Source of the DNA: Xylella taiwanensis
Lineage (GTDB): Bacteria > Pseudomonadota > Gammaproteobacteria > Xanthomonadales > Xanthomonadaceae
Direction: 5' to 3'
Length of the DNA: 32,000 nt
Assembly: GCF_013177435.1 (NCBI RefSeq)
Contig: NZ_CP053627.1
Coordinates: 1,590,001 to 1,622,000 of the forward strand
Positions within the stretch are counted from its first letter, which is position 1. Every line of letters begins with the position of its first letter. Both the position numbers and the translations under genes were made by a program. Of this stretch, positions 5,214-32,000 are shown in pieces. The notes beneath the pieces are model-generated. The model ran no database searches. It had not been told where the DNA came from and saw only the letters and a program-made list of their open reading frames with translations.

Positions 5214-5224
5214 CACATCACCTC

Positions 5225-5554
5225 TCACCTAAATTTAAGTTCAACTGTTTTATTTGTAATCTCCATCAAAGAAGGATTCTTCTCTATATCAATCGTCCAC
5301 CTCGCTCCGGTTTCTTTTTGTGAAGAAGAAACGGACCTCAAACGCACACTGGTTCCATCACTGAGTTTAGCCAGATAAACCCCTGGGCTGACCTGCTTTA
5401 AAGGCACATCTCCGGCCAATTGCTGCGCATAGTTTTTAATATCCTGATCAGTTAAGGCCTCTGATTTAAACACCTTCACATGACCCGCTTTATTACTTCC
5501 CCCTCTCACTTTGGGGTCATACGGGGTGGCTTTGAACTCCACGCCTGCAATCAC
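5225..5554 (-). pseudogene. Family-A toxin stub (last roughly 105 codons only)
   Basis: The frame opens immediately after an in-frame TGA (..TGA GTG ATT GCA GGC GTG GAG TTC AAA..). Homology to full-length family-A toxins begins at ..GVEFKATPYDPKV. No pretoxin or delivery region is present. Confidence 0.75.
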
Positions 5555-9844: not shown

Positions 9845-9858
9845 GGACATTACCGCGC

Positions 9859-10674: not shown

Positions 10675-10688
10675 GGGGATTACCGAGC

Positions 10689-11504: not shown

Positions 11505-11518
11505 GGGGATTACCGCGC

Positions 11519-12337: not shown

Positions 12338-12351
12338 GGACATTACCGCGC

Positions 12352-13164
12352 TCACTGCTTTTGGATGAGCACCGATTGCAAGATGCCGTCCATCAGCTTG
12401 CGGGCACGTTGGTAATCCTCGGTGTTCTGTTGCCGCGCGGCTTCAATAAAGTTGAAGTTGACGGTGATGTAGTAGCCGCTGTCGCCGATGGGAGTCATCC
12501 AGGTTTCCACGCCATCACCCACCGGCGTTGGCATATACGCTCGGTACCAGGTCCAGGCGTTGCCCCAGCGGGTTTCGGTGCGTGGGGGCTCTAAAAAACG
12601 ATTGGACTTGTAAGCACGATCAGGAGCACTGACCCGTGCAACCATTCTTTGGACATGCGTCTGGATACTTTCGCTGGCGGCGCTACGGATCCCAAAGTTA
12701 ATGTCGTTGCGCCCCGCAAACTCTGCATCGCACAACTCACTAAACCTCACCCCGGCGACTTGCTTTTTCACCGTGCCATCGGGCTGGGGGGTGTTTCTGT
12801 AATACGGGTAGCCGATGAAATGGGCATATTTTCTAGCAACCATTGGCGGACCATCTCCAATGCTGGCCACGATTCCTGGGACATCTTCTCCATTACTACG
12901 CCGCTCCATCACCATCTGGACATTGTCCGGCGGCGAGCTGGGGTAACAGCGGAAGATATTGATGCCATTGATAAAGGCGTGTTTGACCGTGTATTGGCCT
13001 AAAAAATCCACCTTGAAGGATTCCAGGCTCAGGTCGCGGTTCTCCCAGGGGCCGGCCAGCATCGGTTTGCCGGTGCGGGAGTCGATACGGGGGCCGGGTC
13101 CGCTGCATGCCAGCAGTACGCTGCTGGCAAGTATCAGGACACCTATCTTGATGCGGCTGTGCAT
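12352..13164 (-). CDS. Tandem lipoprotein paralog A (candidate lipase immunity protein), first gene after cdiA
   Basis: The ATG at 13162-13164 (MHSRIKIGVLILASSVLLACSG) lies 5 nt after the cdiA TAA (13170-13172). The 71-codon upstream extension in the ORF track overlaps cdiA and is not conserved in the other copies. Confidence 0.8.
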   Translation of the reverse strand: MHSRIKIGVLILASSVLLACSGPGPRIDSRTGKPMLAGPWENRDLSLESFKVDFLGQYTVKHAFINGINIFRCYPSSPPDNVQMVMERRSNGEDVPGIVASIGDGPPMVARKYAHFIGYPYYRNTPQPDGTVKKQVAGVRFSELCDAEFAGRNDINFGIRSAASESIQTHVQRMVARVSAPDRAYKSNRFLEPPRTETRWGNAWTWYRAYMPTPVGDGVETWMTPIGDSGYYITVNFNFIEAARQQNTEDYQRARKLMDGILQSVLIQKQ

Positions 13165-13169
13165 GGGGA

Positions 13170-16100
13170 TTACTCCGCGGGGGTGAGCTGTTGGCGCAAC
13201 TGCTGCAGTTGCTGTTGGCGGGAGGTGCCGGTTGGGGGCGATGCAGGGGTGAAGGGTGTCAGCATGCCTGGGGTGCCATCGAGCTGCTGTTGCCAGTAGG
13301 CCGATTGATCCAGGAGGCGTTGCAACTGGGCCAGTTGGGTGGCGACGGGGTCCTCCGGACGCCGCACCGCCTGCCATTGCTGCAGCGCTGCCATGGTCTG
13401 ATCGTGACGCTTACGGTTCATCTCATCGATATCCAGGCCGGCATAGCTGAACACCCCTTCAGGATTGACGTTGTCCGGATGGCTGCCCAGGGCGGCGGTG
13501 CCGCCGCTGCTGTGCACCGAGTAGTTGGTCTCAAAGATCTCCCGCAGGTCCTTCAAACCCGCGGTCCCCGGATAGCCACCAATAATATGGGCGACAAAGT
13601 CATTGGGCGGTGACCAGAAGCCGGGTTTATTTTTAGTAACCTGCCCCGCGACCGCCGTCAGACGGCTCTCTTCAGCCGCGGGGTTGTTGACGAAGATCTT
13701 TAATTCATCGCTCTTCACCCCAAGTGCTGCGAGCACATTGAGCGCCCCGGTTTCAGTCATGGTGCCACGGCTATGACCCACAAAATTTACCGGGTTGGTG
13801 TACTGTTTATCCGCTTCGTTATACATCAACGTCTCCGCCACCTGGGCCTGGAGCCGTGAGGCCGGGCTGACCACGCGCCCATTGCTGACCTCCATCAGCT
13901 TCTCCAGGCCGGCCACGATCAGTTCCCCCACAGTATGGGTGGGCTGGGTATGCACCACGTAGGTGGTGTTAACGTAGGTTTCGCCGGTGTCCTGGATATT
14001 TCCCTTATTCCTGTCCCACGGCGTCATTTGCAAGCCTAGTTCCGCAGCGCGGCGCAACAAGTTGCTGATGCCGTTGCCGAACACGGTGCTGTTTTTCTTC
14101 TCTTCGTCCGCCAGGGCGCGCAGCGCATCCAAGGTCACCGGGATCGCTTGGATATTGGCTACGCCGCCGGTCAGGGCCCAGCGGCTTTGGTCGGTGAGCA
14201 GGTCATCGTTGGGGCCGCGGGTGCCGGCGATGAACTCGGCGACTTTGGTCGCGTCCAAGGTGCGGTTGGCGTCGTGGATGGTGTCTGTCAGGTCGTTGAC
14301 GGCCTGCTCGCGGAGGCGTTTGTCCGACCAGCCCGGATGGGCTTGCCGCAGGGCGGCGGTGCGTTCTTCCACCAATGTGTTGTTGGCTGCATGGTCGTTG
14401 GTGCAGGGTTGGCTGACGCAGAACACCTTCTCAAGGGTCGGGCTGAGGATGTTGCTGAGGCCTTGGTCAATCAGGATGCGGCCGCTGTCGGCCAGTAAGG
14501 CGCCGGCCTGGCTGCGGTGCTGTACGTCAGCCTGCAAGGTGCCCAGGTCGGTGGCCGCCAGAGGGGTGTGGGCCCCATCCGGGTCACGGCGCAGGGTCGC
14601 CAGGGGGGCGGGATCGCCGCCGCGCAGCACGATGTTAGCCGCGCTCACCACCGCTTCGGTAGTGCTGCGGTCGTTGACCTGACGATCAGCGCTGCCCATG
14701 TGTTGACCAATCAGGGTTCTGCCGAGGCTGTAGATCGGAAGCTGGCTGTTGCCCTGGGAGAGGCCGCTGACCAGGTCGCTGCTCAGGGTGAAGCCGGAGG
14801 CACTCGCACCGGCATTGTGGTGGTTGTCCACGGTGCTGTGGCCCATGCTCTGGGTGGAGAGCTTTTGCAATGCCTGAGGGGCGCTGCTGACGATGGCGCC
14901 GCCGTCCAGTTGGGTATGGCCGCCCACGTGGATGGTGTAGCCGCCGGCGCCGGCAAATAGGCCGCTTTGGTCACGCACGCTGGCGTAGTCCTGGGTGGCG
15001 TGTTGATTGGCATGGCTGAAGGTGGCGTTGCTGCCAAGCCCGCTCATGACCAAGGTGGCGCCGGCGCTGTTTTGGCGCTGTTGGGAGCTGGCACGCAGGG
15101 TGTCCTGGCGGCTTTCGATGTCTAGGTTGCCGCCAATGGTGCCGTTGATGCTATCGGCTAAGACATGGGCGCCACGCAGTTGCGCGTTGCCACCGGCGTT
15201 GAGGGTGGCATTGCCACTGACCCGGATGGCGGTGTCCACCTGGGTGACAGACTGCTGACTGGACTGGCCTCTGCCCCGGGCGCCGCCGGCGTTGAGACTG
15301 GGGCTGGAGGAGCCCACGTTCCATTGGGCACCCACGCTGCTGCTGCTGTAGCGTTGGCTGGAGGTGTGCTCTTGGGTGCTCTGGGCGCTGTGCAGAATGA
15401 GGTCACCAGCCGCATTGAAGGCCAGGCTACCGCTGCTAATCTGGGCACCAACGGCGCTGAGTTGCCCGGTGCCCTCTTGGCGCTCGCCTTTTTCATTGTG
15501 GATGCCAAAGGCGGTGACGGAGACTTTGCCGCCGGCGCGTAGTTGGGCACCGCGGGCCGTGGTGGCGGTCATGCTGGTCTGGCTTTGGCTGGTGGTGCTG
15601 CCGAAAGAGACGCCGCCGCCGAAGGTGTGGGGTATGCCGCCTTCGCGCAGGGTCTTGATTTCGTCCAGGGCACGATCACCGGCACTGAAGGCGCTGTTGA
15701 GGGCGCGTACGCCGTACAGCGTGCTGAGTTGTCCCGTCGGGGCATGGCGGGCGTTTCTAATGTCGGCGGGCACGGCCTGGGCGAAGGTGCCCAGGGCGCT
15801 GCTGAAGCCAACGCTAAAGCCGCTGTGTTTGCTGGCCTGCTGCTGTTGAGCGCTGGCGGTGTCGTACACCGGGTCCATGGTGACGTTGACGCCGCTGACG
15901 TTGATGTTGCCGGCGGCAATCAGGTCGATGCCAGGGGCCTGGACGGCGCCTTTGCTGGAGTGGATGAGGATGTTGCCATTGAGGGCGGCCACGGTGTTGC
16001 CGGTCAAGTAGGTGGCGTGGTGGCTGCCTTGTTGGCTGGCTTTTTGGGAGCCCACGGTGAAGCCGGCGCCAGAACCGAACACGCCGCTGCGGCGCTGGGT

Positions 16101-22100: not shown

Positions 22101-22535
22101 TAGGCCATCAATGCGCAGGTGGGCCGCCTGGGGGCCGGTGTGGAGGAATTGGCCGCCACGGTTGTTGAACTGTTGGGTGTTCAGGTCCAGGGCGCCGCTG
22201 GCTTGGAGTTGCCCAGCGGCGTTGTTGACCACTTGGCTGTGAATGAGGGCCTCTGCTGCAAGGTGCAGGATGCCGTGACGGTTATCCAACCCTTGGCCTT
22301 GCAGGGTCAGTTGGTTCAGGGCGGCGTGGCCGTGGCGGTTGTCCAGGCCGCTCAGGGTGGCGTTGATGGCGCCGCCAGCCGTGATGAGGCCGCCGCGGTT
22401 GTCAATGTCACTCTCTAGGGTCAGGCGACCGTCGGCCAGCAGGGAGATGGCAGGGGGGGACGCAGGCAGGGGGGAGGTGTCGTTGCCAGGAGGTTCAATG
22501 GCAACGGAAGGGGGGGGGGCTGCCAGGAGGCTCAA
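13170..22535 (-). CDS. cdiA: cdiA/tpsA-type exoprotein, distal 3121-codon frame (FHA-1 repeats, central region, FHA-2 repeats, lipase-like C-terminus); out of frame with the TPS part
   Basis: It contains hundreds of LDN(R/S)GG-type beta-helix repeats and the conserved ..KRLGDGFYEQRLIREQIAQLTGRR..LTSDIVWL.. block. The track start is a TTG inside the coding continuum. The frame joins 22495-23865 if the C-run is 9 nt instead of 10 nt. Confidence 0.9.
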   Translation of the reverse strand: MSLLAAPPPSVAIEPPGNDTSPLPASPPAISLLADGRLTLESDIDNRGGLITAGGAINATLSGLDNRHGHAALNQLTLQGQGLDNRHGILHLAAEALIHSQVVNNAAGQLQASGALDLNTQQFNNRGGQFLHTGPQAAHLRIDGLLDNQHGVLASAANALTLQTGQLTNDAGQLQASGALALNTQQFSNRGGQFLHTGPQAAHLRIDGLLDNQHGVLASAANALTLQTGQLTNDAGQLQASGALDLQTHQLNNRGGQLLHTGPQAAHLRIGGLLDNTTGTLSSTGSALTLNATTLDNSGGTVQHSGQGSLQIDAATLFGPGGTLSSQGALSITGTQTDLSQGTTWAQHVSIRTGVLSTAGGQLTAQSDQALQLEARTRLDNRGGSIATNGVLDLHTATLDNRGGTLHSTGPGASRLEATQALDNRGGHLLLTGPATLTTGTWDNTQGQLLLSGPGTLHASTLDNRGGVLHTATGLLDLHVTGTLNNQDNGTLSSGQDLRLSAATVFNQHGTLDAAGAAQLHLSGLLDNSAGLLQSREALWLSSAGLTNRAGTLSGAQVTLYTQNQPLDNRGGRLGSTSGTVTLHSGVLDNRAGLVQAATALRIDTGPHLLDNSAGGALLAGGALDLRSATLNNHGGQVFSQAATQLHSTHIDNTAGGQLGGANGLQIDAHTLSNTGGRLHSGADARLHLDNRLDNHDGLISAAGALAITTTTLDNRTTPAAPDPGSRPRDTAAPATGLHATHLQIDSTTLDNRDGHLSAAQDIALTLRGALQNTAGRLTAGGTLQLSAAQLTNQAGTLLSGGAQSLHLSAFSGAGLLHAGTALTLALQEGLDNGGTLSAAGLLTVRTAGALHNRGLIQAADLTLHAQRIDNVATGQMAASGQAQLSAADTFSNAGLLHTGDLTLHAQRIDNAATGQMAASGQAQLSAADTFSNAGLLHTGDLTLQARTIDNAATGQMTASGQAQLTATETLTNSGLLQGRDLTLHAQNIDNVATGQMAASGQAQLTATETLSNSGLLQGRDLTLQAQRIDNVATGQMAASGQAQLTATATLSNSGLLQGRDLTLHAQRIDNAAAAQILASGQAQLSAADTFSNAGLLHTGDLTLQARTIDNAATGQITASGQAQLTATATLSNRGLIDAATTHLQAATLDNIGTARLYGDHLALQAQTLTNRDESTAGQTHAATIAARERLDIGAATVRNSGAALIYSAGDAAIGGTLDSDRHATGSATLLDNRSATIDVDGALDITTTTLNNIRDNVHLTQAPGVSTTVRMSQPAWRDNQRNNDADFTLTSNYDAHEIYYLNPNDILQDEPYTTPDGYIIHRAVVRLTPQTSAYLYARGGLYAARGQRQRLDLSQREGIVVLYYTDRQDQQPNPDQVQSAARQGSAWAGLDTPQKNERQQDVHITYQDEVLTYDPAYGTCRTDCVRLITWRDYTDPDHTLTHMRRGPTDVKTNEQYRHATKTTVDDILQPGVGAAALIQSGGAMFVQVDRLANHYADILAGGDQTIVGLPPHPPKDPEKAPEYSKASLIDNLTAELSRTTQFNNISYTYAGAAETWTMPSQRYTIGQIGGRITSGGHQYIAAVDVNNRLQSLHTTTHVEHPPLGDLHTSPPMPLMPELTPAPSTDQSAEEPALSVESQLPLTIPDTTLQDLADARLPTLHTDNAPISVAAPSWATATTVPGPLILPNNRLFTVHPDAASLIVTDPHFSGGSDRTTADRQLQALNDPLASMHKRLGDGFYEQRLIREQIAQLTGRRLLDGYANDDQQYRALLDAGVTVAQHYGLRPGIALSADQMAQLTSDIVWLVEQPVTLPNGTSTTALVPRVYLRPRRGDLKTDGALMAGARLTMDLSGTLTNTGTLTGRDRLTIDADNIHQEGGQMDADHVKVHTKDTLTDIGGTFSARSSLDVTAAGGLIARSTTRGYSTSGQRHFSRTEIDRPSTFRVTGPGGTLHVTSDKDMTLQGVTFSNTGPGGTSSVTAAGKLNMATVAVGETNTATLGPGNSIHSTRDSEVGTRITGTGNVTIKGEGGVIGRAVTLDSRQGKLNISSADGTVALVAGQERRSGQEERTSRRSGLWGSSRSHSTASSQDTIALGSVLGGTKVTVTGDKVYSVGTDFIADGNPHIEGTHGVGMFGAQNTHSSSYSTTQRRSGVFGSGAGFTVGSQKASQQGSHHATYLTGNTVAALNGNILIHSSKGAVQAPGIDLIAAGNINVSGVNVTMDPVYDTASAQQQQASKHSGFSVGFSSALGTFAQAVPADIRNARHAPTGQLSTLYGVRALNSAFSAGDRALDEIKTLREGGIPHTFGGGVSFGSTTSQSQTSMTATTARGAQLRAGGKVSVTAFGIHNEKGERQEGTGQLSAVGAQISSGSLAFNAAGDLILHSAQSTQEHTSSQRYSSSSVGAQWNVGSSSPSLNAGGARGRGQSSQQSVTQVDTAIRVSGNATLNAGGNAQLRGAHVLADSINGTIGGNLDIESRQDTLRASSQQRQNSAGATLVMSGLGSNATFSHANQHATQDYASVRDQSGLFAGAGGYTIHVGGHTQLDGGAIVSSAPQALQKLSTQSMGHSTVDNHHNAGASASGFTLSSDLVSGLSQGNSQLPIYSLGRTLIGQHMGSADRQVNDRSTTEAVVSAANIVLRGGDPAPLATLRRDPDGAHTPLAATDLGTLQADVQHRSQAGALLADSGRILIDQGLSNILSPTLEKVFCVSQPCTNDHAANNTLVEERTAALRQAHPGWSDKRLREQAVNDLTDTIHDANRTLDATKVAEFIAGTRGPNDDLLTDQSRWALTGGVANIQAIPVTLDALRALADEEKKNSTVFGNGISNLLRRAAELGLQMTPWDRNKGNIQDTGETYVNTTYVVHTQPTHTVGELIVAGLEKLMEVSNGRVVSPASRLQAQVAETLMYNEADKQYTNPVNFVGHSRGTMTETGALNVLAALGVKSDELKIFVNNPAAEESRLTAVAGQVTKNKPGFWSPPNDFVAHIIGGYPGTAGLKDLREIFETNYSVHSSGGTAALGSHPDNVNPEGVFSYAGLDIDEMNRKRHDQTMAALQQWQAVRRPEDPVATQLAQLQRLLDQSAYWQQQLDGTPGMLTPFTPASPPTGTSRQQQLQQLRQQLTPAE
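13173..14368 (-). other. C-terminal roughly 400-aa effector region of cdiA: alpha/beta-hydrolase (lipase/esterase-like) domain with a Gln-rich tail
   Basis: The nucleophile-elbow motif is FVGHSRGT (Ser codon 13770-13772). Candidate acid/His residues lie downstream (..PPNDFVAHIIGG.., ..YSVHSSGG..). The region starts after ..FCVSQPCTNDHAANN (14369-14380). There is no two-Cys PT-VENN domain. Confidence 0.6.
19134..19973 (-). repeat. Seven tandem 120-nt (40-aa) near-identical repeats inside cdiA
   Basis: The units read GLL(H/Q)(T/G)(G/R)DLTL(H/Q)A(Q/R)(R/T/N)IDN(A/V)ATGQ(M/I)(A/T)ASGQAQL(S/T)A.... The nucleotide period is exactly 120, and several units are identical over most of their length. 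Confidence 0.9.
21639..22214 (-). repeat. Three tandem 192-nt (64-aa) repeats inside cdiA (first two nearly identical)
   Basis: GQLQASGAL.LNTQQF.NRGGQFLHTGPQAAHLRIDGLLDNQHGVLASAANALTLQTGQLTNDA occurs twice and is followed by a diverged third copy. Unit starts are at 22214, 22022 and 21830. Confidence 0.9.
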
Positions 22536-23865
22536 CGGCGACGGGAGGGGCGCTGGGGCCGGTGGGCAGGTCCGTGGAGGGAGGCTGCCCGATAGACGGC
22601 CCCTCCACAGCTCCCAGGCGGCCTTGGGCTTGGTTGTCGAACTGCTGGGCTTGGATGGATAGGGGTTGGGCGCCGGTTTGTTCCAGGCGACCGCCGCGGT
22701 TGTCCAGGGTGGCGCCGCTCAGGTCCAGTCGAGCGGCGTTGAGGGTGCCGCTGCGGTTGTCAATGTCGGCCTGAGTGTGCAGGTGCAGGGTCTGGGCAGC
22801 ACTGATCAGGCCGCTGTTGCCAACCCCCTGTGTCGCGTTCAGGTGCGTGTCTGTGGCCGCTTGCAGGCGACCACTGTTGTCTAGGCGGCCATCCACCGTG
22901 ACCACCAGTTCACCGGACTGGGCCGTCATGGCGCCAGCATGACGGACGCCTAAGCCGTGTTCGGTGCCTATCAGGGTGATCTTGCCGGCGTACATCCCGC
23001 CCAGGGCCGATACATCCAGGGCAAAGGCCGGAGGCGCCGCCGCGCCAGGCAGGGAGACAGCCGCGCTACCGTCAGCCGGCACGGAGGCAGCGCCAATGCT
23101 CCCCTGCAGTTGCTGGGCCCATAGGCCAGCGTTGAGCTGTATGGAGCGGGTGATCAGGGCGGTGTAGTCAGCCGTGCGGCTGTCCAGGCCAGCGCCGTCC
23201 AGGCGAATAGCACCGCCTTGAACGCGGTAGCTCTCTAAGGCGCCGCCAGCATCAAACTCGGGAGCTCCCGTGCTCAGGGTGAAACGGCTGGCGTTGAGCA
23301 CCCCGCAGCCGCTGCAGGTGATCCCAGAAGGGTTGGCAATGATCACTTGGGCGCGGGCGCCAGCCACTTCCACCATGCCATGCAATTGGCTGGGTTGGGC
23401 GCTGTTTACTTCGTTAAGAATCACCCGGGCGGTGCCGGTCGCCAGCCAGGGGTTGCCCGGTACCCAGCCGCCCAGGTGTGTTTGGGTTTGGGTGCGGGCG
23501 TTGTTGAGAATCGCGCCAGAGGCGCCCACGTCTAGCTGTTGGTAGGTGTTGCGCGATACTCCCGCCTGGCTGGGGGTTTGAATATTGATCAGGGCAACAC
23601 CAGGGGACGCTTCCAAAATCGTGGGGCGCTGCGTCCCGGGGGCCTGGGGATCGGCCACCACTTGGGCGCCAGCCAGGCTGCACACCCCAACCCAACCCAG
23701 GCTCAACCATAATCCAAAGGACACTGCACGCACTTGCGCGGTCTGTCGGCGCGCTAGCTGCGGTGAGGTGCCCGCGGCGCTACCGCGTGGAACAGCCAGT
23801 TCTGAAGCCACTTGCCATAGGCGCAGGGCGCGGTTGTAGATCAGGCGGTACAGGTCCTTGTTCAT
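22495..23865 (-). CDS. cdiA: cdiA/tpsA-type exoprotein, proximal part: extended signal peptide (ESPR) and TPS secretion domain, terminated by a frameshift
   Basis: The ATG at 23863-23865 is preceded by AAGGA. The ESPR is MNKDLYRLIYNRALRLWQVASELA. TPS hallmarks are ..AGVSRNTYQQLDV.., ..ILNN.., ..GNPWL.., ..ILNEV.. and ..VIIANPSGITCSGCGVLN... The frame ends ..EPPGSPPPFRCH* just after the homopolymer. Confidence 0.9.
   Translation of the reverse strand: MNKDLYRLIYNRALRLWQVASELAVPRGSAAGTSPQLARRQTAQVRAVSFGLWLSLGWVGVCSLAGAQVVADPQAPGTQRPTILEASPGVALINIQTPSQAGVSRNTYQQLDVGASGAILNNARTQTQTHLGGWVPGNPWLATGTARVILNEVNSAQPSQLHGMVEVAGARAQVIIANPSGITCSGCGVLNASRFTLSTGAPEFDAGGALESYRVQGGAIRLDGAGLDSRTADYTALITRSIQLNAGLWAQQLQGSIGAASVPADGSAAVSLPGAAAPPAFALDVSALGGMYAGKITLIGTEHGLGVRHAGAMTAQSGELVVTVDGRLDNSGRLQAATDTHLNATQGVGNSGLISAAQTLHLHTQADIDNRSGTLNAARLDLSGATLDNRGGRLEQTGAQPLSIQAQQFDNQAQGRLGAVEGPSIGQPPSTDLPTGPSAPPVAVEPPGSPPPFRCH
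22510..22519. repeat. G10 (coding-strand C10) homopolymer at the cdiA frameshift
   Basis: I counted 10 consecutive G at 22510-22519. With 9 (or 12) the frames fuse to read ..VAVEPPGSPPPSVAIEPPGNDTSPL... Confidence 0.9.
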
Positions 23866-23932
23866 CCATAGTCCTTGTGATGAGGGAGGATCCCGAACGC
23901 CCAGGTCAGGTGAGGGATGCTCCATGAGATAA

Positions 23933-24242: not shown

Positions 24243-24263
24243 CTGAACCGATTGGAGGCCGGC

Positions 24264-24533
24264 ATGCGAACCACTCAACAAATGAGCATCACTTTGCCAA
24301 ATGACATGGCCAACGTGGTGAGAACGAAGGTGAAAACAGGAGAATACGCGAACGAAAGCGAGGTCATCCATGACGGCCTGCGCGCGCTTCTTGCACGTGA
24401 CCTTGCCGTCGAAGCTTGGCTTCACAACCAAGCAGGTGCAGCGTATGACGCGCTGAAAGCCGATCCCGCCCGAGCTATCACCCCTGACCAAGTACGCACA
24501 CGCCTCGCCGCAGAACATACGAAGGCCCGATGA
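24264..24533 (+). CDS. parD: ParD-family (ribbon-helix-helix, COG3609-type) antitoxin
   Basis: The ATG at 24264 is preceded by GGAGG with a 5-nt spacer. The motif ..MSITLPNDMANVVRTKVKTGEYANESEVIHDGLRALLARD.. is typical of ParD-type antitoxins. Its stop overlaps the parE start (ATGA). Confidence 0.8.
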   Translation: MRTTQQMSITLPNDMANVVRTKVKTGEYANESEVIHDGLRALLARDLAVEAWLHNQAGAAYDALKADPARAITPDQVRTRLAAEHTKAR

Positions 24534-24850
24534 GCTACAAGGTTGTTTTCTCACCTGAGACCGAAGAGCAGCTTGCCAAGCTATACCGCTACATCGCGGC
24601 AGCGGCCTCACCTGACATTGCAGCTCACTACACCGAAGCAATCGTCTCCTACTGTGAAAGTCTTGGCACGTTCCCCCTGCGCGGCACCATGCGCAACGAT
24701 GTACGACCTGGCTTGCGCATCACGCACTACCGCAAGCGCGTCGTGATCGCCTTCGATGTGGTTGACAATCTGGTTTCCATCATAGGCGTGTTCTACGGCG
24801 GCCAGGATTACGAAACAATCCTGCACGATCACGATGACGCGGACGAATGA
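24530..24850 (+). CDS. parE: ParE/RelE-superfamily toxin
   Basis: The 106-aa protein MSYKVVFSPETEEQLAKLYRYIA...RITHYRKRVVIAFDVVDNLVSIIGVFYGGQDYE has a typical ParE layout and is translationally coupled to parD. Confidence 0.8.
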   Translation: MSYKVVFSPETEEQLAKLYRYIAAAASPDIAAHYTEAIVSYCESLGTFPLRGTMRNDVRPGLRITHYRKRVVIAFDVVDNLVSIIGVFYGGQDYETILHDHDDADE

Positions 24851-24872: not shown

Positions 24873-24939
24873 AATAAACCTCATATTTACCCACCACCGC
24901 GTGATAAGCCTCTTCCACATTTTGAAATTCATGATTCAT
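24873..24939 (-). pseudogene. Remnant of an ImmN immunity gene (N-terminal codons with an internal deletion)
   Basis: It translates as MNHEFQNVEEAYHA|VVGKYEVY.., compared with the intact MNTEFEFQNVEEAYHAIAEDLMAFPGERAWDEVVGKYEVY (27457-27894). Homology ends about 25 nt from the parE stop. Confidence 0.7.
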
Positions 24940-25197
24940 TGGTTAAATGTCCTTGAAATTTTTTCCCCGTTAATCTCTCTGCTTTAACCACAAACTTATT
25001 CGGCCTCACGCCCCCATTGACTGGATAATACACATCAATGTTGACATTGACGGACTTACCGTCCTGCAAGGCTTGACGAAACATATTTTCCATTTCCTTC
25101 CAATCGCTTCGATTCAAAATCTTTGCTTGCGGCACGAGATTGATCTTATCACCGGCTCCGCCGAGGCTGGATGCAATCAAATGTCCGCCTTCATCGC
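24929..25197 (-). pseudogene. 3' fragment of a third His-Me nuclease CT allele
   Basis: It translates as ..(GDEGGH)LIASSLGGAGDKINLVPQAKILNRSDWKEMENMFRQALQDGKSVNVNIDVYYPVNGGVRPNKFVV... It is out of frame with the upstream piece. A 1-nt deletion near the end shifts the stop. Confidence 0.8.
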
Positions 25198-25210
25198 CCG
25201 GTAGACCACT

Positions 25211-25589
25211 GTGACATCCAGTGAACCGCGGGCGCTGAATGTGCCGCCAATGTCGGTGAGGGTGTCTTTGGTATGCACTTTGACGTGGTCGGCGTCCATC
25301 TGGCCGCCTTCTTGGTGGATGTTGTCCGCGTCAATCGTGAGGCGGTCGCGCCCGGTGAGGGTGCCGGTGTTGCTGAGGGTGCCCGATAGGTCCATGGTGA
25401 GGCGGGCACCGGCCATGAGGGCGCCGTCGGTCTTCAGGTCCCCGCGGCGCGGGCGTAGGTAGACACGGGGTACCAGGGCGGTGGTGCTGGTGCCGTTGGG
25501 CAGGGTGTCTAGGGCCTGTTGGGTTTGGGTGGCTTCTTGAGCGCGGTTGTTAATAAAGGTGCCGACTTCGCGCTGCAGGCCGCTGCCGA
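25211..25589 (-). pseudogene. Scrambled cdiA fragments: a copy of main-gene region about 16815-17106 fused in frame to a copy of the pretoxin-leader region (compare 7328-7410)
   Basis: 25211-25506 encodes TLPNGTSTTALVPRVYLRPRRGDLKTDGALMAGARLTMDLSGTL.NTGTLTGRDRLTIDADNIHQEGG.., as in the main cdiA. 25507-25589 encodes ..GLQREVGTFINNRAQEATQTQQALD. The junction at 25506/25507 has TG microhomology. Confidence 0.8.
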
Positions 25590-25830
25590 CGTTTTATGAC
25601 TTCCCGCTTTATATTCGGATGAGGTTGGTTTTAGATTTAAACCAAAAATAACCCATTGATGATTTAGGCAATGCTACCCAAACACACCCTACTTTATTCA
25701 ATAGCCTTTAAATAAAACACCACGATTTATATTAGCAATCATACCCGCACCGGCACCCCCCCTTTAGGGACGCGGCACCCGTGGATTAACACCACTCACC
25801 TCAAGAGGCAGTGCAATTACTGAGGCATCA
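25590..25830 (-). repeat. Intergenic repeat, copy R3 (full length, most diverged)
   Basis: It has the same left breakpoint (..ccgctgccga|cgttttatgac..). Its AT palindrome is degenerate (tttattcaatagcctttaaataaa). Its GC-hairpin arm is of the R1 subtype. Confidence 0.85.
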
Positions 25831-26223
25831 TCAAAAACACCAATCGTAATCATCCTCACCATGTTCTCCTACGCCTTTTAATACCCAGACGGCGACGAAT
25901 GGACACTCCTCAAACACCAACCAAGTTCCTTTCTCTAGTGCTTCATCCGAAGCAGGAAAACAGCTTCTAAACATCTCCACCAACACCTCGGTGGAACCCT
26001 CCATGATAAGTCCGTCCTTTCTATTACCAAGCTTGAAACGACCCTCATCAAGGAATTTCCCGATGATAAACAGAAAATCGTTTTTTCTTTCTTCAAATGA
26101 ATCCTGAGCTATCTGCTGAGGCCCAATTCCATGCGCCCTCCCTACATACCCCCAAAGAAAATGCAAAGGCTCCCCTGCCCTGTCAGGGTCACAAATAGAA
26201 TCTATCTGCTCTTGGGTTAACAT
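25831..26223 (-). CDS. CDI immunity protein, family A (ImmA)
   Basis: The ATG at 26221-26223 gives MLTQEQIDSICDPDRAGEPLHFLW... It lies directly after toxin stub 26235-26597. Confidence 0.8.
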   Translation of the reverse strand: MLTQEQIDSICDPDRAGEPLHFLWGYVGRAHGIGPQQIAQDSFEERKNDFLFIIGKFLDEGRFKLGNRKDGLIMEGSTEVLVEMFRSCFPASDEALEKGTWLVFEECPFVAVWVLKGVGEHGEDDYDWCF

Positions 26224-26234
26224 CCAATCACCTC

Positions 26235-26597
26235 TCACCTAAATTTAAGTTCAACTGTTTCTTTTGTAATGTCTCGCAAAGAAGGATTATTTTCTATATC
26301 AATCGTCCACCTCGCTCCGGTTTCTTTTTGTGAAGAAGAAACAGACCTCAAACGCACACTGGTTCCATCACTGAGTTTAGCCAGATAAATACCTGGGCTG
26401 ACCTGCTTTAAAGGCACATCTCCGGCTAATTTTTGCGCATAGTTTTTAATATCTTGATCAGTTAAGGCCTCTGATTTAAACACCTTCACATGACCCGCTT
26501 TATTACTTCCCCCTTGCACTTTGGGATCATACGGGATGGCTTTGACATTGACATTGCTTCGATTCAACAGCGATGCTTGCAGCAACATCGCATGCAA
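26235..26597 (-). pseudogene. Family-A toxin stub fused to a short scar of a nuclease CT gene
   Basis: Family-A homology starts at ..KAIPYDPKVQGGSNKAGHVKVF... The preceding codons ..LLNRSNVNV.. resemble ..ILNRSDW...SVNVNI.. of the nuclease allele at 24929-25197. Confidence 0.7.
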
Positions 26598-26667
26598 GCA
26601 CCTAAAAGAAGAAAATCCATCGCGTTTAATGATTTCACTGACGCAGTGTCAAGCCAATCAAACAACC

Positions 26668-27054
26668 TCACGTCCACTCATAATAATCTTCTCCATTTTC
26701 ACCTTCTCCTTTAAACACCCATACCGCTCCAGCGGGACACTCATCCATAAAAAACCAGAGTCCTGCTCCTTCCATATCCACATCTTCATCCGAAACAGGA
26801 AACGATTTTCTAAATAGATCAACCAATTCTTCGGTCGTCCCCGTAATAAATTCACCTTTTTTGGCAAGCTTAAGCTTGCCCTCATCAAGTAATTTCTCCA
26901 ATAAAAACAGAAAATCATTTTTTCTTTCTTCAAACGAATCATTATTTACTTTCCTAGTATCAATTCCATGTGCATCACATATGCCAAACCAAAGAAAATG
27001 CAAAGGATGGATTAAATCCTCACAAATAAAATCTATTTGTTCTTGCGTTAACAT
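26668..27054 (-). CDS. CDI immunity protein, family A (ImmA), divergent allele
   Basis: The ATG at 27052-27054 lies 4 nt after the TAA of the toxin stub (the same TTTT spacer as at 301-306). It translates as MLTQEQIDFICEDLIHPLHFLW... Confidence 0.8.
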   Translation of the reverse strand: MLTQEQIDFICEDLIHPLHFLWFGICDAHGIDTRKVNNDSFEERKNDFLFLLEKLLDEGKLKLAKKGEFITGTTEELVDLFRKSFPVSDEDVDMEGAGLWFFMDECPAGAVWVFKGEGENGEDYYEWT

Positions 27055-27058
27055 AAAA

Positions 27059-27391
27059 TTACCTGAATTTAAGTTCAACTTTTTGTTGATTTACAACATC
27101 TTTCAAGGCCGGACTATTTCTTATATCAATCGTCCACCTCGCTCCAGTTTCTTTTTGTGAAGAAGAAACAGACCTAAAATTCAAAATAGTTCCATCACTG
27201 AGTTTAGCCAGATAAACCCCTGGGCTGACCTGCTTTAAAGGCACATCTCCGGCCAATTGCTGTGCATAGTTTTTAATATCCTGATCCGTTAAGACCTGGG
27301 AATCAAACACCTTCACATGACCCGCTTTATTACTTCCCCCTCTCACTTTGGGATCATACGGGATGGCTTTGACCTCCACGCCTGAAATCAC
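27059..27391 (-). pseudogene. Family-A toxin stub (last roughly 105 codons only)
   Basis: It has the same junction type as 5225-5554 (..TGA GTG ATT TCA GGC GTG GAG GTC AAA GCC ATC CCG TAT GAT..). Confidence 0.75.
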
Positions 27392-27456
27392 TCATTCATG
27401 ATTGAGCTTATTTAACTAGCCGCTGGCGGCACCATTATCACCAGCAGCCTTGATGC

Positions 27457-27894
27457 TCATCCAAACAAATTACGTAAAGATTGATTGGCCTCTTCGCCCG
27501 TGATGAACTCATCAGACTCATCGTAATCCTCGGGCTTGTTGTAGTCATATTCAATATTAAATTTAACTTTACAGAATTCATCACCAAGGTCACCGTTGGG
27601 ACGAATAGTACACGTCAAACCCCATATTCGATCTCCACCTGACTTTATAAGATCATCTTTAAGATATAAAACAGCAGCGAAAGCACGAGAATGGAATTCA
27701 TCAGAACCACCAATCCATTTCCTATCCACACACCCTTCTTTTACTAACCACCATCTACATGAAACCATTTTTGGATAAACCTCATATTTACCCACCACTT
27801 CATCCCAAGCGCGCTCGCCTGGAAATGCCATAAGATCTTCTGCAATGGCATGATACGCTTCTTCGACATTTTGAAATTCGAATTCGGTATTCAT
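27457..27894 (-). CDS. Immunity protein for the His-Me nuclease CT (ImmN, 145 aa)
   Basis: It is a paralog of 5619-6044, and its ATG overlaps the toxin stop (ATGA). Confidence 0.7.
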   Translation of the reverse strand: MNTEFEFQNVEEAYHAIAEDLMAFPGERAWDEVVGKYEVYPKMVSCRWWLVKEGCVDRKWIGGSDEFHSRAFAAVLYLKDDLIKSGGDRIWGLTCTIRPNGDLGDEFCKVKFNIEYDYNKPEDYDESDEFITGEEANQSLRNLFG

Positions 27895-29066
27895 TGATAA
27901 AACTCCTTTAAAATCTTTTCCCCGTCAATCGTTGCTTCAACCACAAACTTATTCGGTCTCACGCCACCAGTGGCTGGATAACCCAGATCGATCTTGACAC
28001 TGACGGACTTGCCGTCCTGTAACGCTTGATTAAACTGTTGTTCCATTTTTCTCCACCCGCTTCGGTTCAAAATCTCTGCTTGCGGCACGAGATTGATCCT
28101 ATCACCAGCTCCACCGAGGCTGGAGGCAATCAAATGTCCGCCTTCATCGCCCAGTTCGCCACACTTACCCATACAACGTTGCTGGTAGGTGTTGCGGTCC
28201 ATCTTTTTTAAAGTCAAATCCGCTTCGACACTTTTTACTAATCCTCTCGTGTCTGTCACATACCCATGACCGTTATCCAACACATAGGCTGTCTTAGGCT
28301 CCAGAGAACCATTGACCGCTTTATCCCAACCAGTGTTCTTGCTGCCTGTGGTGATTTGTTTGACCTGGCTGACATCGGCCCGCTTGGCTAACTGATCAGT
28401 CAATGCCTGACGCCGGGCGACAACATCGGTTGCACCGGAGATCCAGCGGCCACCAATTTTGGCCGCTCTCACGCCGTATTTGGCCAGGTTGCCGATCATC
28501 ACCGAGGCGATGTATTCCTCGCCTTTTTCTAGGGCCACTTGTTCTATGGTCTTTTCCCCTGAACGAATCGCTTTGATGTCTTGCCAGGCGTCATAGGCGG
28601 TCAGGCCTTTATCGGCTAACCAAAGGGCACCAATGAGCACGGGGACGAAGACCGCGTTGTTTTCGGTTTCCAGCCGGGCTGCTGCACTGCTCACCGCCGC
28701 TTCGCCACCGGCGGCGGCGGTGATGCCGGCCACCAGGCTGGTGACGGTATCGGTGCGCTGTTGTTTTTCCGCGGCGCTCAGGCTGGCAACGTCGGCGCCG
28801 GTGGCGCGGTCTAGTAGGTTATTGATGACCACGGCCGCCGCCGCGCCAGTGGCGCCGGCGCCGCACCCTTGGCCTTGGGCGGCAGCACCAGCGCAGCCCA
28901 GCAGGCCTTGCAGGGCCGCACGGGCTGGTTCGCTGTCTAGTTGGTCGGCCAGTGTTTTGACTTGGCTGGCGCCTAGGCTTTGCAGGTAGTTGATCGCAGC
29001 GCCTTGAAGCATTTGGGTGGCGCTGCCGGTCACGTGGCTGCCGGCGGCCAGGTTCAGGGCGGTCAC
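27891..29066 (-). CDS. Orphan cdiA-CT module: pretoxin (ETENN), shared 74-aa segment and His-Me nuclease CT (second allele)
   Basis: It is collinear with 6041-7216 at a constant offset of 21850 nt. cdiA homology continues to 29260 and then meets repeat R4. It contains the motif ..GDEGGHLIASSLGGAGDRINLVPQAEILNRSGW... Confidence 0.85.
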   Translation of the reverse strand: MTALNLAAGSHVTGSATQMLQGAAINYLQSLGASQVKTLADQLDSEPARAALQGLLGCAGAAAQGQGCGAGATGAAAAVVINNLLDRATGADVASLSAAEKQQRTDTVTSLVAGITAAAGGEAAVSSAAARLETENNAVFVPVLIGALWLADKGLTAYDAWQDIKAIRSGEKTIEQVALEKGEEYIASVMIGNLAKYGVRAAKIGGRWISGATDVVARRQALTDQLAKRADVSQVKQITTGSKNTGWDKAVNGSLEPKTAYVLDNGHGYVTDTRGLVKSVEADLTLKKMDRNTYQQRCMGKCGELGDEGGHLIASSLGGAGDRINLVPQAEILNRSGWRKMEQQFNQALQDGKSVSVKIDLGYPATGGVRPNKFVVEATIDGEKILKEFYQ

Positions 29067-29260
29067 AATCGTTCTGCCGGTGCCGCCTACGTCCCAGGTG
29101 GCGTTGTCTTGGAGGCGTTGGTGTAGGGCCGCGATTAGGGCCGGGTCACGTTGGTGTTCGGGTTTGGCGCGTTCGCTGTCTAGGGCCTGTTGGGTTTGGG
29201 TGGCTTCTTGAGCGCGGTTGTTAATAAAGGTGCCGACTTCGCGCTGTAGGCCGCTGACGA

Positions 29261-29500
29261 CGTTTTGTGACTTCCCGCTTTATATCCGGATAGGGTTGAT
29301 TTTAGATTTAAACCAAAAATAATCCATTGATGATTTAGGCGACGCGACCCAAACACACCCTACTTTATTCAACAGCCTTGAATAAAACCCCAAGATGGGT
29401 ATTCACCGTCACACCCGCACCGGCACCGCCCCCTTGGGGATGCGGCACCGGTGCAGCAACGCCGCTCACCTCAAGAGGCAGTGCAATTACTGAGGCATCA
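29261..29500 (-). repeat. Intergenic repeat, copy R4 (full length)
   Basis: It has the same left breakpoint as R2. The AT palindrome is at 29364-29386. The GC hairpin is at 29417-29454, with two mismatches. Confidence 0.85.
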
Positions 29501-29908
29501 TCAAAAACACCAATCGTAATAATCCTCACCATGTTCTCCTACTCCTTTCGATACCCAGACGGCGACGAATGGACAATCTGTAAAGAACCAGAGTCCTCCC
29601 ACTTCCTGATCAATCTCTTCATCTGAAGCAGGAAAACATTGCCTGAATCGCTCCACTAGCTCCTCGATGGAACCCTCCAAGATACGCTCGTCCTTTCTAT
29701 GACCAAGCTTAAGATGACCCTCATCCATTAATTTCCCGATGATAAACAGGAAATCGTTTTTTCTTTCCTCAAAGGAGTGCGGATCCGCTTGATCATGAGA
29801 CAGTCCATGCGCATCCCCTATATAACTCCAAAGAAAATGCAAAGGATCCGCTAAATGCTCATAAAAATAATCTATCTGCTCTTGGGTTAACACAAAATCA
29901 CCTATCAT
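29501..29908 (-). CDS. CDI immunity protein, family A (ImmA)
   Basis: The ATG at 29906-29908 overlaps the toxin-stub stop (ATGA). It translates as MIGDFVLTQEQIDYFYEHLADPLHFLW... Confidence 0.8.
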   Translation of the reverse strand: MIGDFVLTQEQIDYFYEHLADPLHFLWSYIGDAHGLSHDQADPHSFEERKNDFLFIIGKLMDEGHLKLGHRKDERILEGSIEELVERFRQCFPASDEEIDQEVGGLWFFTDCPFVAVWVSKGVGEHGEDYYDWCF

Positions 29909-30267
29909 CTAAATTTAAGTTCAACTTTTTCATTTGTAACCTCCCTCAAAGAAGGATTCTTATCTATATCAATCGTCCACCTTGCTTTGGTCACGTTTTG
30001 TGAAGTAGAAACCGACCTCAACGTCACCTTCGTTCCATCAGTCAGCGTAGCTAGATAAACGCCTGGTTTCATTTCTTTTAAAGGGACATCTCCGGCCAAT
30101 TGCTGTGCATAGTTTTTAATATCCTGATCAGTTAAGGCCTCTGATTTAAACACCTTCACATTACCTGCCTTATTACTTCCCCCTTTCACTTTGGGGTCAT
30201 ACGGGATGGCTTTGACATTGACATTGCTTCGATTCAACAGCGATGCTTGCAGCAACATCGCATGCAA
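29905..30267 (-). pseudogene. Family-A toxin stub fused to the same nuclease-gene scar as 26235-26597
   Basis: The N-terminal 20 codons (MHAMLLQASLLNRSNVNVKAIPYDPKV) and about 70 nt upstream are identical to the 26.5-kb copy. The toxin part then diverges (..LATLTDGTKVTLRSVSTSQNVTKARWTIDIDKNPSL..). Confidence 0.7.
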
Positions 30268-30337
30268 GCACCTAAAAGAAGAAAATCCATCGCGTTTAAT
30301 GATTTCACTGACGCAGTGTCAAGCCAATCAAACAACC

Positions 30338-30730
30338 TCACGTCCACTCATAATAATCTTCTCCATTTTCGCCTTCTCCTTTAAACACCCAGACTGCTAG
30401 GAATGGACACTCATTTATCAGAACAAACCAAAGTCCTACCGCTCCCAGATCCACTTCTTCATCGGAAGCAGGAAAAGATGTTCTGAACATCTCTACTAGT
30501 TCCTCAGTGGTACCCTCGATAAATTCTCCCTTTGTATTGCAAATTTTGAGCCGTCCCTCATCAAGTAATTTCCCGATGATCAACAAGAAATCGTTTTTTC
30601 TTTCCTCAAACGAGTCAGGATCCACTTCTCCAGCAGGAATTCCATAGGCATTCCCTATATCACTCCAAAGAAAATGAAACCCCCCCCCTAAATCCTTACA
30701 AATAAAATCTATTTGTTCTTGAGTTAACAT
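30338..30730 (-). CDS. CDI immunity protein, family A (ImmA)
   Basis: The ATG at 30728-30730 is preceded by GAGGTGA. It translates as MLTQEQIDFICKDLGGGFHFLW... Confidence 0.8.
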   Translation of the reverse strand: MLTQEQIDFICKDLGGGFHFLWSDIGNAYGIPAGEVDPDSFEERKNDFLLIIGKLLDEGRLKICNTKGEFIEGTTEELVEMFRTSFPASDEEVDLGAVGLWFVLINECPFLAVWVFKGEGENGEDYYEWT

Positions 30731-30741
30731 CCAATCACCTC

Positions 30742-31878
30742 TCACCTAAATTTAAGTTCAACTTTTTTATTTGTAATTTCTCTTAAAGAAGGATTATTGT
30801 CTATATCAATCGTCCATCTTGCTTTAGTCAATTCATTTGAAGAAGAAGCAGACCTCAAGGTCACCTTCGTTCCATCACTCAGCGTAGCCAGATAAACCCC
30901 TGGCCTCACCTGGTTTAAAGGCACATCTCCGGCTAATTGCTGCGCATAGTTTTTAATATCCTGATCCGTTAAGGCCTCTGATTTAAACACCTTCACATGA
31001 CCCGCTTTATTACTTCCCCCTTGCACTTTGGGGTCATACGGGATGGCTTTGAACTCCACGCCTCCAACCACTAAGCCATCCTTTGCATTGCCCTTCCCAA
31101 TCACGCCTTTTACGTTATCCAGGCGCTTTATGCGCTGTTGCTCTAAAACACTGCCAATCGGCTTTGAGGTTAAATCAGGCCCTTTAGGATTGTGTGCAAT
31201 TTGATCAAGGGCTTGTTTCTCGGCTTTGGCAATGTCATCGGCTTTGCCGGAGATCCAGCGGCCTCCGATTTTGGCCGCTCTCACACCGTATTTGGCCAGG
31301 TTGCCGATCATCACCGAGGCGATGTATTCCTCGCCTTTTTCTAGGGCCACTTGTTCTATGGTCTTTTCCCCTGAACGAATCGCTTTGATGTCTTGCCAGG
31401 CGTCATAGGCGGTCAGGCCTTTATCGGCTAACCAAAGGGCCCCAATGAGCACGGGGACGAAGACCGCGTTGTTTTCGGTTTCCAGCCGGGCTGCTGCACT
31501 GCTCACCGCCGCTTCGCCACCGGCGGCGGCGGTGATGCCGGCCACCAGGCTGGTGACGGTATCGGTGCGCTGTTGTTTTTCCGCGGCGCTCAGGCTGGCG
31601 ACGTCGGCGCCGGTGGTGCGGTCTAGTAGGTTATTGATGACCACGGCCGCCGCCGCGCCAGTCGCGCCGGCGCCGCACCCTTGGCCTTGGGCGGCAGCAC
31701 CAGCGCAGCCCAGCAGGCCTTGCAGGGCGGCACGGGCCGGTTCGCTGTCTAGTTGGTCGGCCAGTGTTTTGACTTGGCTGGCGCCTAGGCTTTGCAGGTA
31801 GTTGACCGCGGCGCCTTGAAGCATTTGGGTGGCGCTGCCGGTCACGTGGCTGCCGGCGGCCAGGTTCAGGGCGGTCAC
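30742..31878 (-). CDS. Orphan cdiA-CT module: pretoxin (ETENN), shared 74-aa segment and family-A toxin domain
   Basis: It is a paralog of 306-1439. Homology to cdiA continues to about 31959, where an in-frame TAG closes the frame. It is followed by the same junction hairpin as at 1527-1547. Confidence 0.8.
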   Translation of the reverse strand: MTALNLAAGSHVTGSATQMLQGAAVNYLQSLGASQVKTLADQLDSEPARAALQGLLGCAGAAAQGQGCGAGATGAAAAVVINNLLDRTTGADVASLSAAEKQQRTDTVTSLVAGITAAAGGEAAVSSAAARLETENNAVFVPVLIGALWLADKGLTAYDAWQDIKAIRSGEKTIEQVALEKGEEYIASVMIGNLAKYGVRAAKIGGRWISGKADDIAKAEKQALDQIAHNPKGPDLTSKPIGSVLEQQRIKRLDNVKGVIGKGNAKDGLVVGGVEFKAIPYDPKVQGGSNKAGHVKVFKSEALTDQDIKNYAQQLAGDVPLNQVRPGVYLATLSDGTKVTLRSASSSNELTKARWTIDIDNNPSLREITNKKVELKFR

Positions 31879-31967
31879 AATCGTTCTGCCGGTGCCGCCT
31901 ACGTCCCAGGTGGCGTTGTCTTGGAGGCGCTGCTGGAGGGCCGCGATTAGGGCCGGGTCGCACTACC

Positions 31968-31988
31968 GCCGCCCTACCCTTGGGCGGC
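31968..31988. repeat. Second copy of the junction GC hairpin (GCCGCCC-N7-GGGCGGC)
   Basis: 31962-32000 is identical in sequence to 1520-1558. Confidence 0.6.
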
Positions 31989-32000
31989 AGCGCAGCTCAG

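Follow-up and report, generated by a model that had tools for sequence, protein, structure and literature searches.

A probable contact-dependent inhibition orphan array of truncated toxin genes and DUF596 immunity alleles in Xylella taiwanensis

What is encoded by the run of paired toxin-like and acidic-protein genes at 25831-31878 of a 32,000-nucleotide (nt) stretch of the Xylella taiwanensis genome (contig NZ_CP053627.1, positions 1,590,001 to 1,622,000; the whole stretch is called the window below), and are its shortest toxin-like members, which begin partway into a domain, toxins in their own right? An earlier note on this DNA had named the C-terminal domain "family A" and distinguished full copies from 5'-truncated stubs. 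From the analysis reported here, 25831-31878 is very probably an orphan array of a contact-dependent inhibition (CDI) system trailing a main cdiA gene, that is, an immunity repertoire with stubs as remnants. The copies located within 1-5554 constitute a second orphan array.

The gene that the array trails lies beyond the window edge. The window maps to X. taiwanensis CP087686.1, and the toxin query matched an X. taiwanensis protein at 100% identity. Just past coordinate 32000 there is a full-length hemagglutinin/CdiA gene (loci L030/L031, 1-7455) whose product, 3525 amino acids (aa) long in GCA_021044525.1, carries ESPR, two-partner secretion (TPS) and Fil_haemagg domains. Its C-terminus reads '...ETENNAVFVPVLIGALW...GGRWISGKADD...KPIGSVLEQQRIKRLDNVKGVIGKGNAKDGLVVGGVEFKAIPYDPKVKGGSNKMG...ELKFR*', and the tail was also read as '...ETENN...KAIPYDPKVKGGSNKMG...ELKFR*' with an MLTQEQID... 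gene next. At this end ETENN precedes a segment presumed to serve cytoplasm entry, behind which comes the family-A toxin; a DUF596 gene starts 11 nt on. The orphan modules share homology with this gene upstream of the toxin. Since a TPS effector of the CdiA type ends in it, the family-A domain would be the toxin-bearing tip of a genuine two-partner-secreted protein, and we read 25831-31878 as the orphan array behind that effector. With its DUF596 gene, main cdiA brings the allele pairs to eight, and it alone is armed. The earlier note had counted "three armed toxins" in the window, a description that does not hold, as none of the window's toxin open reading frames (ORFs) has a TPS domain; they start inside the pre-toxin region.

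Within the window the C-terminal toxin domain is present in seven copies, three full orphans and four 5'-truncated stubs, all of which were matched by the domain profile (E 1e-58 to 1e-69). According to the ORF listing of the window, all toxin and immunity genes of both arrays lie on the minus strand. The full copies close ORFs of 377-436 aa, and each toxin copy is followed by a gene for a ~130-aa acidic protein; six of these immunity genes are complete and one is cut by the window edge, so that the census of three full copies, four stubs and seven immunity genes given in the note was correct. Its spacing of 0-10 nt was less exact: the immunity start codon lies 4 or 11 nt past the toxin stop in all seven pairs, and a Shine-Dalgarno sequence of the AGGTGA or GAGGTGA type overlaps the toxin stop codon ahead of the immunity gene. 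The modules have a GC content of about 41%, versus 58-70% in neighbouring hemagglutinin sequence. Homology of the orphans to the main gene extends upstream up to a stop codon. The window copies carry ETENN or LDNN with no match to the Pfam model PT-VENN, which homologues in other taxa do match.

Read along the minus strand, the array begins with an orphan cdiA-CT (C-terminal toxin region) at 30742-31878, comprising pre-toxin homology, ETENN, a presumed cytoplasm-entry segment of ~75 aa and a full family-A toxin (profile positions 2-140 at 30745-31158). Its DUF596 (Imm-NMB0513) immunity gene (30338-30730) starts with an ATG at 30730, 11 nt past the toxin stop. There follow a stub of the second of two junction types (29905-30267), with homology from profile position 28 (29908-30243), and a DUF596 immunity gene with a GTG start (29501-29893). 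The orphan cdiA-CT at 27891-29066 bears an Endonuclease_NS_2 (DNase-type) toxin behind an ENN motif and entry segment that it shares with the family-A orphans, and its putative immunity gene (27457-27894; 145 aa) is without family match. A type-1 stub (27059-27391; homology from profile ~27-31) starts 63 nt past that gene and precedes a DUF596-type immunity gene of an EWT-ending subclass (26668-27054). The last pair consists of a type-2 stub (26235-26597), which matches the copy at 29905 at 100% identity across its junction and upstream spacer (26536-26715), and a DUF596-type immunity gene (25831-26223) with a palindromic element downstream (25759-25783).

The second array begins with a type-1 stub (5225-5554) after the immunity gene (5619-6044) of a 982-aa Endonuclease_NS_2 CdiA fragment; the DUF596-type gene behind it is located at 4821-5213 and, like those at 25831-26223 and 26668-27054, is outside the four alleles scanned against Pfam. 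Next is an orphan cdiA-CT (3010-4320) whose motif is LDNN and whose entry region differs; its family-A toxin is full (domain at 3013-3420), and it is followed by its DUF596 immunity gene (2609-2998) and, downstream, another copy of the palindromic element (2537-2561). The final orphan is of the ETENN type (306-1439; toxin domain 309-719) and has a variant full domain, reading KATPRGSEGG where the others have KAIPYDPKV.GG. The seventh DUF596-type gene (1-301) is the one cut by the window edge, its first 100 codons being visible.

Can the two partners be assigned to known families? The earlier note had left both unclassified. The acidic protein is DUF596, also known as Imm-NMB0513. Pfam DUF596 (PF04591) matched all four scanned window alleles above the gathering threshold (27-45 bits against a cutoff of 25) and 26 of 26 members scanned, including all 24 ORFs downstream of the toxin in other genera. 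The sequence matched PDB 2O5H from Neisseria meningitidis (E 1.5e-4). Foldseek analysis of the AlphaFold model (predicted local distance difference test score, pLDDT, 80) returned 2o5h_A (E 2.2e-5, probability 1.00, template modelling (TM) score 0.61) as the sole match at E <= 0.001, with 2o5h_B at E 7.4e-3; the fold is that of 2O5H, alpha+beta and similar to a winged helix-turn-helix. The proteins have isoelectric points (pI) of 4.1-4.7. Among its tryptophans W101 never varies and W22, W114 and W129 seldom do; in the comparison across genera the same holds for W97 and for W109 and W118, respectively. These tryptophans agree with the 'W, W' in the description by Zhang et al. 2012 (PMC3482391), who gave the family the name Imm-NMB0513 and paired it with the toxins Ntox20 and Ntox7. 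At a threshold of 90% identity, the DUF596 proteins of Xylella alone form at least 78 clusters.

An exhaustive profile search for the toxin domain gave 171 family representatives at 50% clustering. The domain is found at C-termini, and long members carry TPS, Fil_haemagg_2, DUF637, PT-VENN, PT-TG or PT-HINT domains. Outside Xylella, DUF596 was the next ORF at all 24 loci, which came from Salmonella, Erwinia, Enterobacter, Xenorhabdus, Gilliamella, Serratia, Rhizobium, Cupriavidus and other genera. Of 5426 complete Escherichia coli genomes, 146 also have the pair, under the names 'VENN motif pre-toxin domain-containing protein' and 'DUF596 domain-containing protein'. The note's view of a polymorphic toxin/immunity pair, with predicted activity, is upheld. 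Two loci from Firmicutes records are nearly identical to enterobacterial ones (L001 of Vagococcus sp. to L002 of Salmonella, and L023 of a Veillonella parvula metagenome-assembled genome to L016 of Serratia), and these occurrences probably represent contamination or mis-binning rather than the true distribution.

The described features of Ntox20, a mostly beta structure, a conserved R (here R104), a type V secretion system (T5SS)/FilH context and the Imm-NMB0513 partner, fit family A, which is probably Ntox20; the assignment was made from these features and not from the Ntox20 alignment. A literature search on Ntox20 and NMB0513 returned Zhang et al. 2012 (PMC3482391) alone. Family A is probably also the E. 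coli CdiA-CT type 1 (EHW54111.1), matched by description. The toxin thus belongs to an already catalogued family, whose activity is labelled 'unknown' in the literature. NCBI/CDD labels the Xylella homologues, stubs included, as 'hemagglutinin' or 'DUF769 domain-containing'. We rejected DUF769 for the toxin: PF05590 gave no match to it at E <= 1 and instead matches the lipoprotein genes at 9029-13377 (E 1e-107). The label probably dates from an older model of wider scope.

The toxin domain is basic (pI 9-10, about 9.7), and the residues invariant throughout the family (R104, W117, T118, E136 and K138) are all in its C-terminal half. The AlphaFold model of a 140-aa segment (pLDDT 88.9, predicted TM score, pTM, 0.86) comprises eight strands together with two long and two short helices. 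No family in Pfam or NCBIfam was matched by the toxin. The Foldseek test for a BECR/RNase fold that the note had proposed found no significant neighbour of the model in PDB (best E 0.19, EspG), nor was there one in BFVD, and searching the PDB sequences with a single toxin sequence and with a 27-member profile gave nothing below E 0.2. A BECR-fold RNase (barnase, EndoU, colicin E5/D, RelE) found no structural support, HigB2 ranking 45th with E 2.8 and TM 0.2, and neither did other nuclease folds.

Are the stubs whole domains? According to the note, the domain was about 105 aa long and the point at which the stubs begin may be its true boundary. Both proposals are contradicted by the data. The conserved domain is ~135 aa long, and the stub junctions fall 15-25 residues inside its N-terminal limit. 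Seventy-four proteins from the homology search match the profile from position 2-12 through at least position 138, and the N-terminal family consensus, Q..R.DEL..LFDK......L...G, is conserved as well as the middle of the domain. In two Rhizobium proteins the self-cleaving PT-HINT domain ends 1-2 residues ahead of profile position 15, and the Gly-rich linker (ELGGAGAGTPGGWGP...) of the Enterobacteriaceae proteins runs up to about position 5-8. The AlphaFold model has helix 6-21 and strand 30-33 within one compact body. With the domain limit upstream of the junctions, the stubs are without about 27 domain positions, among them helix alpha1 and the LFDK motif; all of the family-invariant residues are retained in them.

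The note had also claimed that the four stubs share one breakpoint. Their junctions do lie within a few codons of each other, at about profile position 27-31 of 140, but there are two types, each duplicated. The type-1 junction (5225 and 27059) follows an Endonuclease_NS_2 immunity gene, and its DNA homology reaches 'YE*VIAGVEFKA'; these stubs have an in-frame TGA at a Leu codon of the full copies and no recognisable Shine-Dalgarno sequence. The type-2 junction (26235 and 29905) follows a DUF596 gene plus a spacer of ~110 nt, with the profile match starting at position 28, and an AGGTG motif is located 10 nt upstream of an in-frame ATG (seen in copy 26235-26597). Segmental duplications account for the two copies of each type, so that the clustering represents two independent events; we put the probability of such clustering by chance at about 5%. 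The stubs of X. fastidiosa start at profile positions 20-21 and 53, and those of other genera at 45, 70, 82, 90 and 107, a scatter which indicates that stubs do not define a functional unit.

How did the copies diverge? Among the seven window pairs the toxin cores are on average 77% identical in amino-acid sequence, and the immunity proteins 64%. When the main cdiA pair of L030 was included, giving eight pairs, immunity was the more diverged partner in 26 of 28 pairwise comparisons, in agreement with the note's impression by eye. Pairwise Nei-Gojobori ratios of non-synonymous to synonymous substitution (dN/dS) are 0.22-0.64 for toxin and 0.24-0.62 for immunity, or ~0.40 and ~0.36, respectively, when calculated on mean dN and dS. 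The dN/dS check that the note had suggested revealed no positive selection, no toxin or immunity pair having a value above 1 (none above 0.65). Nor do toxin and immunity co-diverge.

A comparison of 25506-27392 with 29177-31072 revealed a mosaic. The spacer and junction are 100% identical, the 5' half of the toxin 92%, its 3' half 70-80%, the immunity gene 57-88% and the sequence just downstream 93-97%. This last stretch adjoins, on the upstream side, the palindromic element CACGGGTGCCGCGTCCCTAAAGGGG (minus strand), which is found ~50-70 nt past some DUF596 genes, where none would be expected by chance. The element is also present in X. fastidiosa arrays (L025/L027), with a related element ahead of X. 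fastidiosa stubs, and could be a terminator or a recombination arm. The pattern of conserved arms and a variable core is the signature of cassette recombination, under which stub ORFs can look constrained without being functional; the low stub dN/dS could result from variation imported by gene conversion.

The array does look like the accumulated immunity repertoire that the note had proposed, and a mechanism can be suggested. Orphans keep pre-toxin homology and would be graftable onto the main gene by homologous recombination. The stubs would be 5'-truncated leftovers of displaced toxins, probably kept since they hold the ribosome-binding site and upstream homology for a still-useful immunity gene, and the net product would be an immunity repertoire against the toxins of neighbours. 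While the analysis establishes the families, the gene architecture, the limits of the domain, the mosaic and the divergence statistics, toxicity and neutralisation are inferred, the latter presumably through direct binding of DUF596 to the toxin. The first 211 aa of the ETENN orphan at 30742-31878 are 95% identical to the Endonuclease_NS_2 orphan, and the two diverge beyond that point; the common segment includes the ~75 residues after ENN and a hydrophobic stretch. Since this entry segment is shared with a DNase-type toxin, which must reach the cytoplasm, the family-A toxin probably acts there too. In E. coli, CdiA-CT type 1 has entry domain #11 in common with an RNase toxin (PMC11630599). 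The shared entry segment, entry domain #11 and the combination of a basic toxin with an acidic immunity protein lead us to a guess, held with somewhat less than even confidence, that the toxin may be a nucleic-acid-directed enzyme, perhaps an RNase, blocked by directly bound DUF596.

Several observations weigh against an orphan array with stub remnants. All four stubs have an open frame through the native stop codon, unlike long-dead pseudogenes, and their dN/dS values within the toxin range likewise count against such pseudogenes. Distances between toxins do not correlate with those between immunity proteins (r = -0.08, Mantel p 0.63, eight pairs), so the gene after each toxin may not be its co-evolved partner. 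No TpsB/CdiB gene was found in the sequence examined, and none lies in the window; the ORF at 22495-23925 is the ESPR and TPS N-terminus of a hemagglutinin, not TpsB. With no significant structural neighbour in PDB or BFVD, the nuclease guess is without fold support. Halvorsen et al. 2024 (PMC11630599) list E. coli CdiA-CT 'type 1' as DUF769 with activity 'unknown', toxicity of the family being predicted only.

These points invite other explanations of the stubs. They might be complete toxic domains minus delivery parts, acting with their immunity genes as intracellular addiction modules that stabilise the array. Four intact ORFs with dN/dS below 1 between stubs (0.27 for 26235 versus 29905) would fit, as would retention of the invariant residues and coupling of the immunity start to the stub stop codon. 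The domain, however, begins upstream of the junction, PT-HINT cleavage in Rhizobium frees it from profile position ~13-15, and the helix and strand near the junction are integrated in the modelled fold. While the AGGTG motif ahead of an ATG in type-2 stubs would also fit, type-1 stubs have no counterpart and an in-frame TGA directly upstream. The breaks at positions 45-107 in other genera and at 20-21 and 53 in X. fastidiosa also speak against such modules, and mosaic gene conversion can account for the low dN/dS. We consider this explanation unlikely. Nor do we put much faith in a wider proposal, that the truncated cores are maintained, constrained ORFs cut at a preferred boundary (profile ~27-28 in two independent junctions), which either are expressed with their immunity gene inside the cell for addiction or regulation or form a programmed library of cassettes for switching specificity, with a toxin fold that has no solved relative; this too is improbable.

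It is highly improbable that the domain is instead an adhesin or maturation module of hemagglutinins and DUF596 a chaperone or regulator. Although Xylella hemagglutinins are known adhesins (PMC8176220), the DUF596 fold is winged-helix-like and family-A activity is predicted only, in many phyla the domain comes after a pre-toxin module (PT-VENN, PT-TG or PT-HINT), it occupies the slot of a DNase-type toxin on the same scaffold, and orphan arrays and low-GC cassettes are hallmarks of CDI. A role of the stubs as selected silent cassettes, comparable to Neisseria tpsC and pilS, is possible if doubtful: their conserved 5' half and the conserved element behind the immunity gene would be homology arms, between which recombination would swap the variable 3' half of the toxin, together with immunity, into expressed copies. 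Such exchange has a precedent in Neisseria but is rare there, and no recombinant was directly observed here (PMC3848433 for Neisseria). The conserved arms around a variable core, the palindromic post-immunity element in both X. taiwanensis arrays and in X. fastidiosa, and the decoupled divergence of toxin and immunity all agree with it, whereas the junction clustering comes from two independent events in this genome. Silent cassettes are compatible with the remnant explanation and not exclusive of it.

Which known systems does the orphan array resemble? Poole and colleagues are said to have described, in 2011, the orphan cdiA-CT/cdiI genes of E. coli EC93 and EC869 and Rhs loci as promoter-less CT/immunity pairs with homology upstream of VENN. 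In those systems displaced earlier toxins reportedly leave fragments, and the toxin families differ from those of Xylella. The VENN pre-toxin and DUF596 modules of E. coli have a homologous toxin domain directly followed by DUF596, as in Xylella, and in strain BH100N the pair is likewise an orphan downstream of cdiA, beside an Endonuclease_NS orphan. The E. coli toxins are about 40-50% identical to those of Xylella, with VENN in place of ETENN or LDNN and different entry domains. Ntox20 with Imm-NMB0513 (PMC3482391) shares with the Xylella pair the DUF596 (2O5H) partner, the T5SS/FilH context and the conserved R, and its range includes alpha, beta and gamma proteobacteria, as does that of family A. 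Ntox7, the other Imm-NMB0513 partner and a predicted BECR RNase, has a DGx+xhR motif that is no exact fit to family A (PMC3482391).

The tpsA/tpsC/IORF loci of N. meningitidis (Arenas et al. 2013, PMC3848433), the species from which the DUF596 protein NMB0513 comes, also have 5'-truncated effector cassettes among immunity ORFs behind a TPS effector, and cassette recombination was proposed there to collect immunity genes. The toxin alleles differ, and the Xylella arrays also hold much shorter stubs, cut within the toxin domain. In Stenotrophomonas maltophilia, a relative within the Xanthomonadales, the CdiI of CdiA groups 'Unknown/Other E and F' contain DUF596, and many non-cognate cdiI genes are present per genome (PMC11893273), a likeness which concerns the immunity genes alone.

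What follows for Xylella? The architecture of the array is textbook CDI built from already catalogued families, and current models stand. In the searchable literature Xylella hemagglutinins are treated as adhesins only; at least one of them is a toxin-tipped CdiA, and of the 12 copies in the reported X. taiwanensis 'hemagglutinin copy-number expansion' (PMC8176220) many may be CDI orphan toxin fragments and not adhesin genes. The CDI field gains an allelic series within one genome, eight toxin and eight immunity alleles of a family whose activity is listed as 'unknown'. Having no structural neighbour in PDB or BFVD, the toxin family is a reasonable target for biochemistry, and its activity and fold, together with the meaning of the stub-junction clustering in Xylella, are the parts of real remaining interest.

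Other features were noted around the two arrays. At the distal end of the orphan array, 24929-25416 (minus strand) contains an 83-aa 3' fragment of an Endonuclease_NS_2 toxin and a hemagglutinin-repeat fragment. Between the array and the next hemagglutinin gene is a pair of genes for a ParD-like antitoxin and a ParE toxin (24252-24850, plus strand). Two of the immunity genes contain G9 runs in the coding strand (C9 on the plus strand at 2948-2956 and 30680-30688), which encode the GGG of 'DLGGGFH'; the tract has nine bases in a second strain too, and these are possible slippage sites. A third toxin family is represented by a 112-aa stub ORF at 2136-2474 (ending in ...GFGREIEYLKKNGYVYDAATGKMVKP) and a 182-aa putative immunity gene at 1591-2139, neither protein having a match in Pfam or NCBIfam. 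Its full version, a 453-aa LDNN orphan with a 177-aa partner, is located upstream of the window (L030, 7956-9847). Fewer promoter and terminator sites were predicted in 25400-32000 than in its shuffled counterpart, which makes that scan uninformative, and an Rfam scan of the whole window gave no match.

The 982-aa ORF at 6041-8989 has Fil_haemagg_2 and a C-terminal Endonuclease_NS_2 toxin without a TPS domain, and is followed by its 141-aa putative immunity gene at 5619-6044. The lipoprotein array cuts it off from the hemagglutinin, and it is presumably not exportable as is. A G10 tract (22510-22519, plus strand) divides that hemagglutinin gene (minus strand, 23925 to 13170) into a 476-aa ESPR and TPS ORF and a 3121-aa ORF; deletion of one base of the tract gives a single ORF of 3584 codons. 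Another X. taiwanensis assembly has nine bases at the tract (L031, 19360-19368) and an intact hemagglutinin of 3557 aa, and the difference reflects either phase variation or an error in sequencing the homopolymer. Pfam matched nothing in the last ~630 aa of the window hemagglutinin. After its stop codon, 9029-13377 (minus strand) holds five tandem units of ~830 nt that are 80-98% identical, found by a general repeat search since their period exceeds the limit of Tandem Repeats Finder. Each unit is a separate gene for a lipoprotein of ~271-277 aa with the signal MHRRIKLGVLILASSVLLAC, followed directly by SGPGP, and the hemagglutinin C-terminal region with these diverged tandem lipoproteins could be a second arrangement of the toxin and immunity-repertoire kind.

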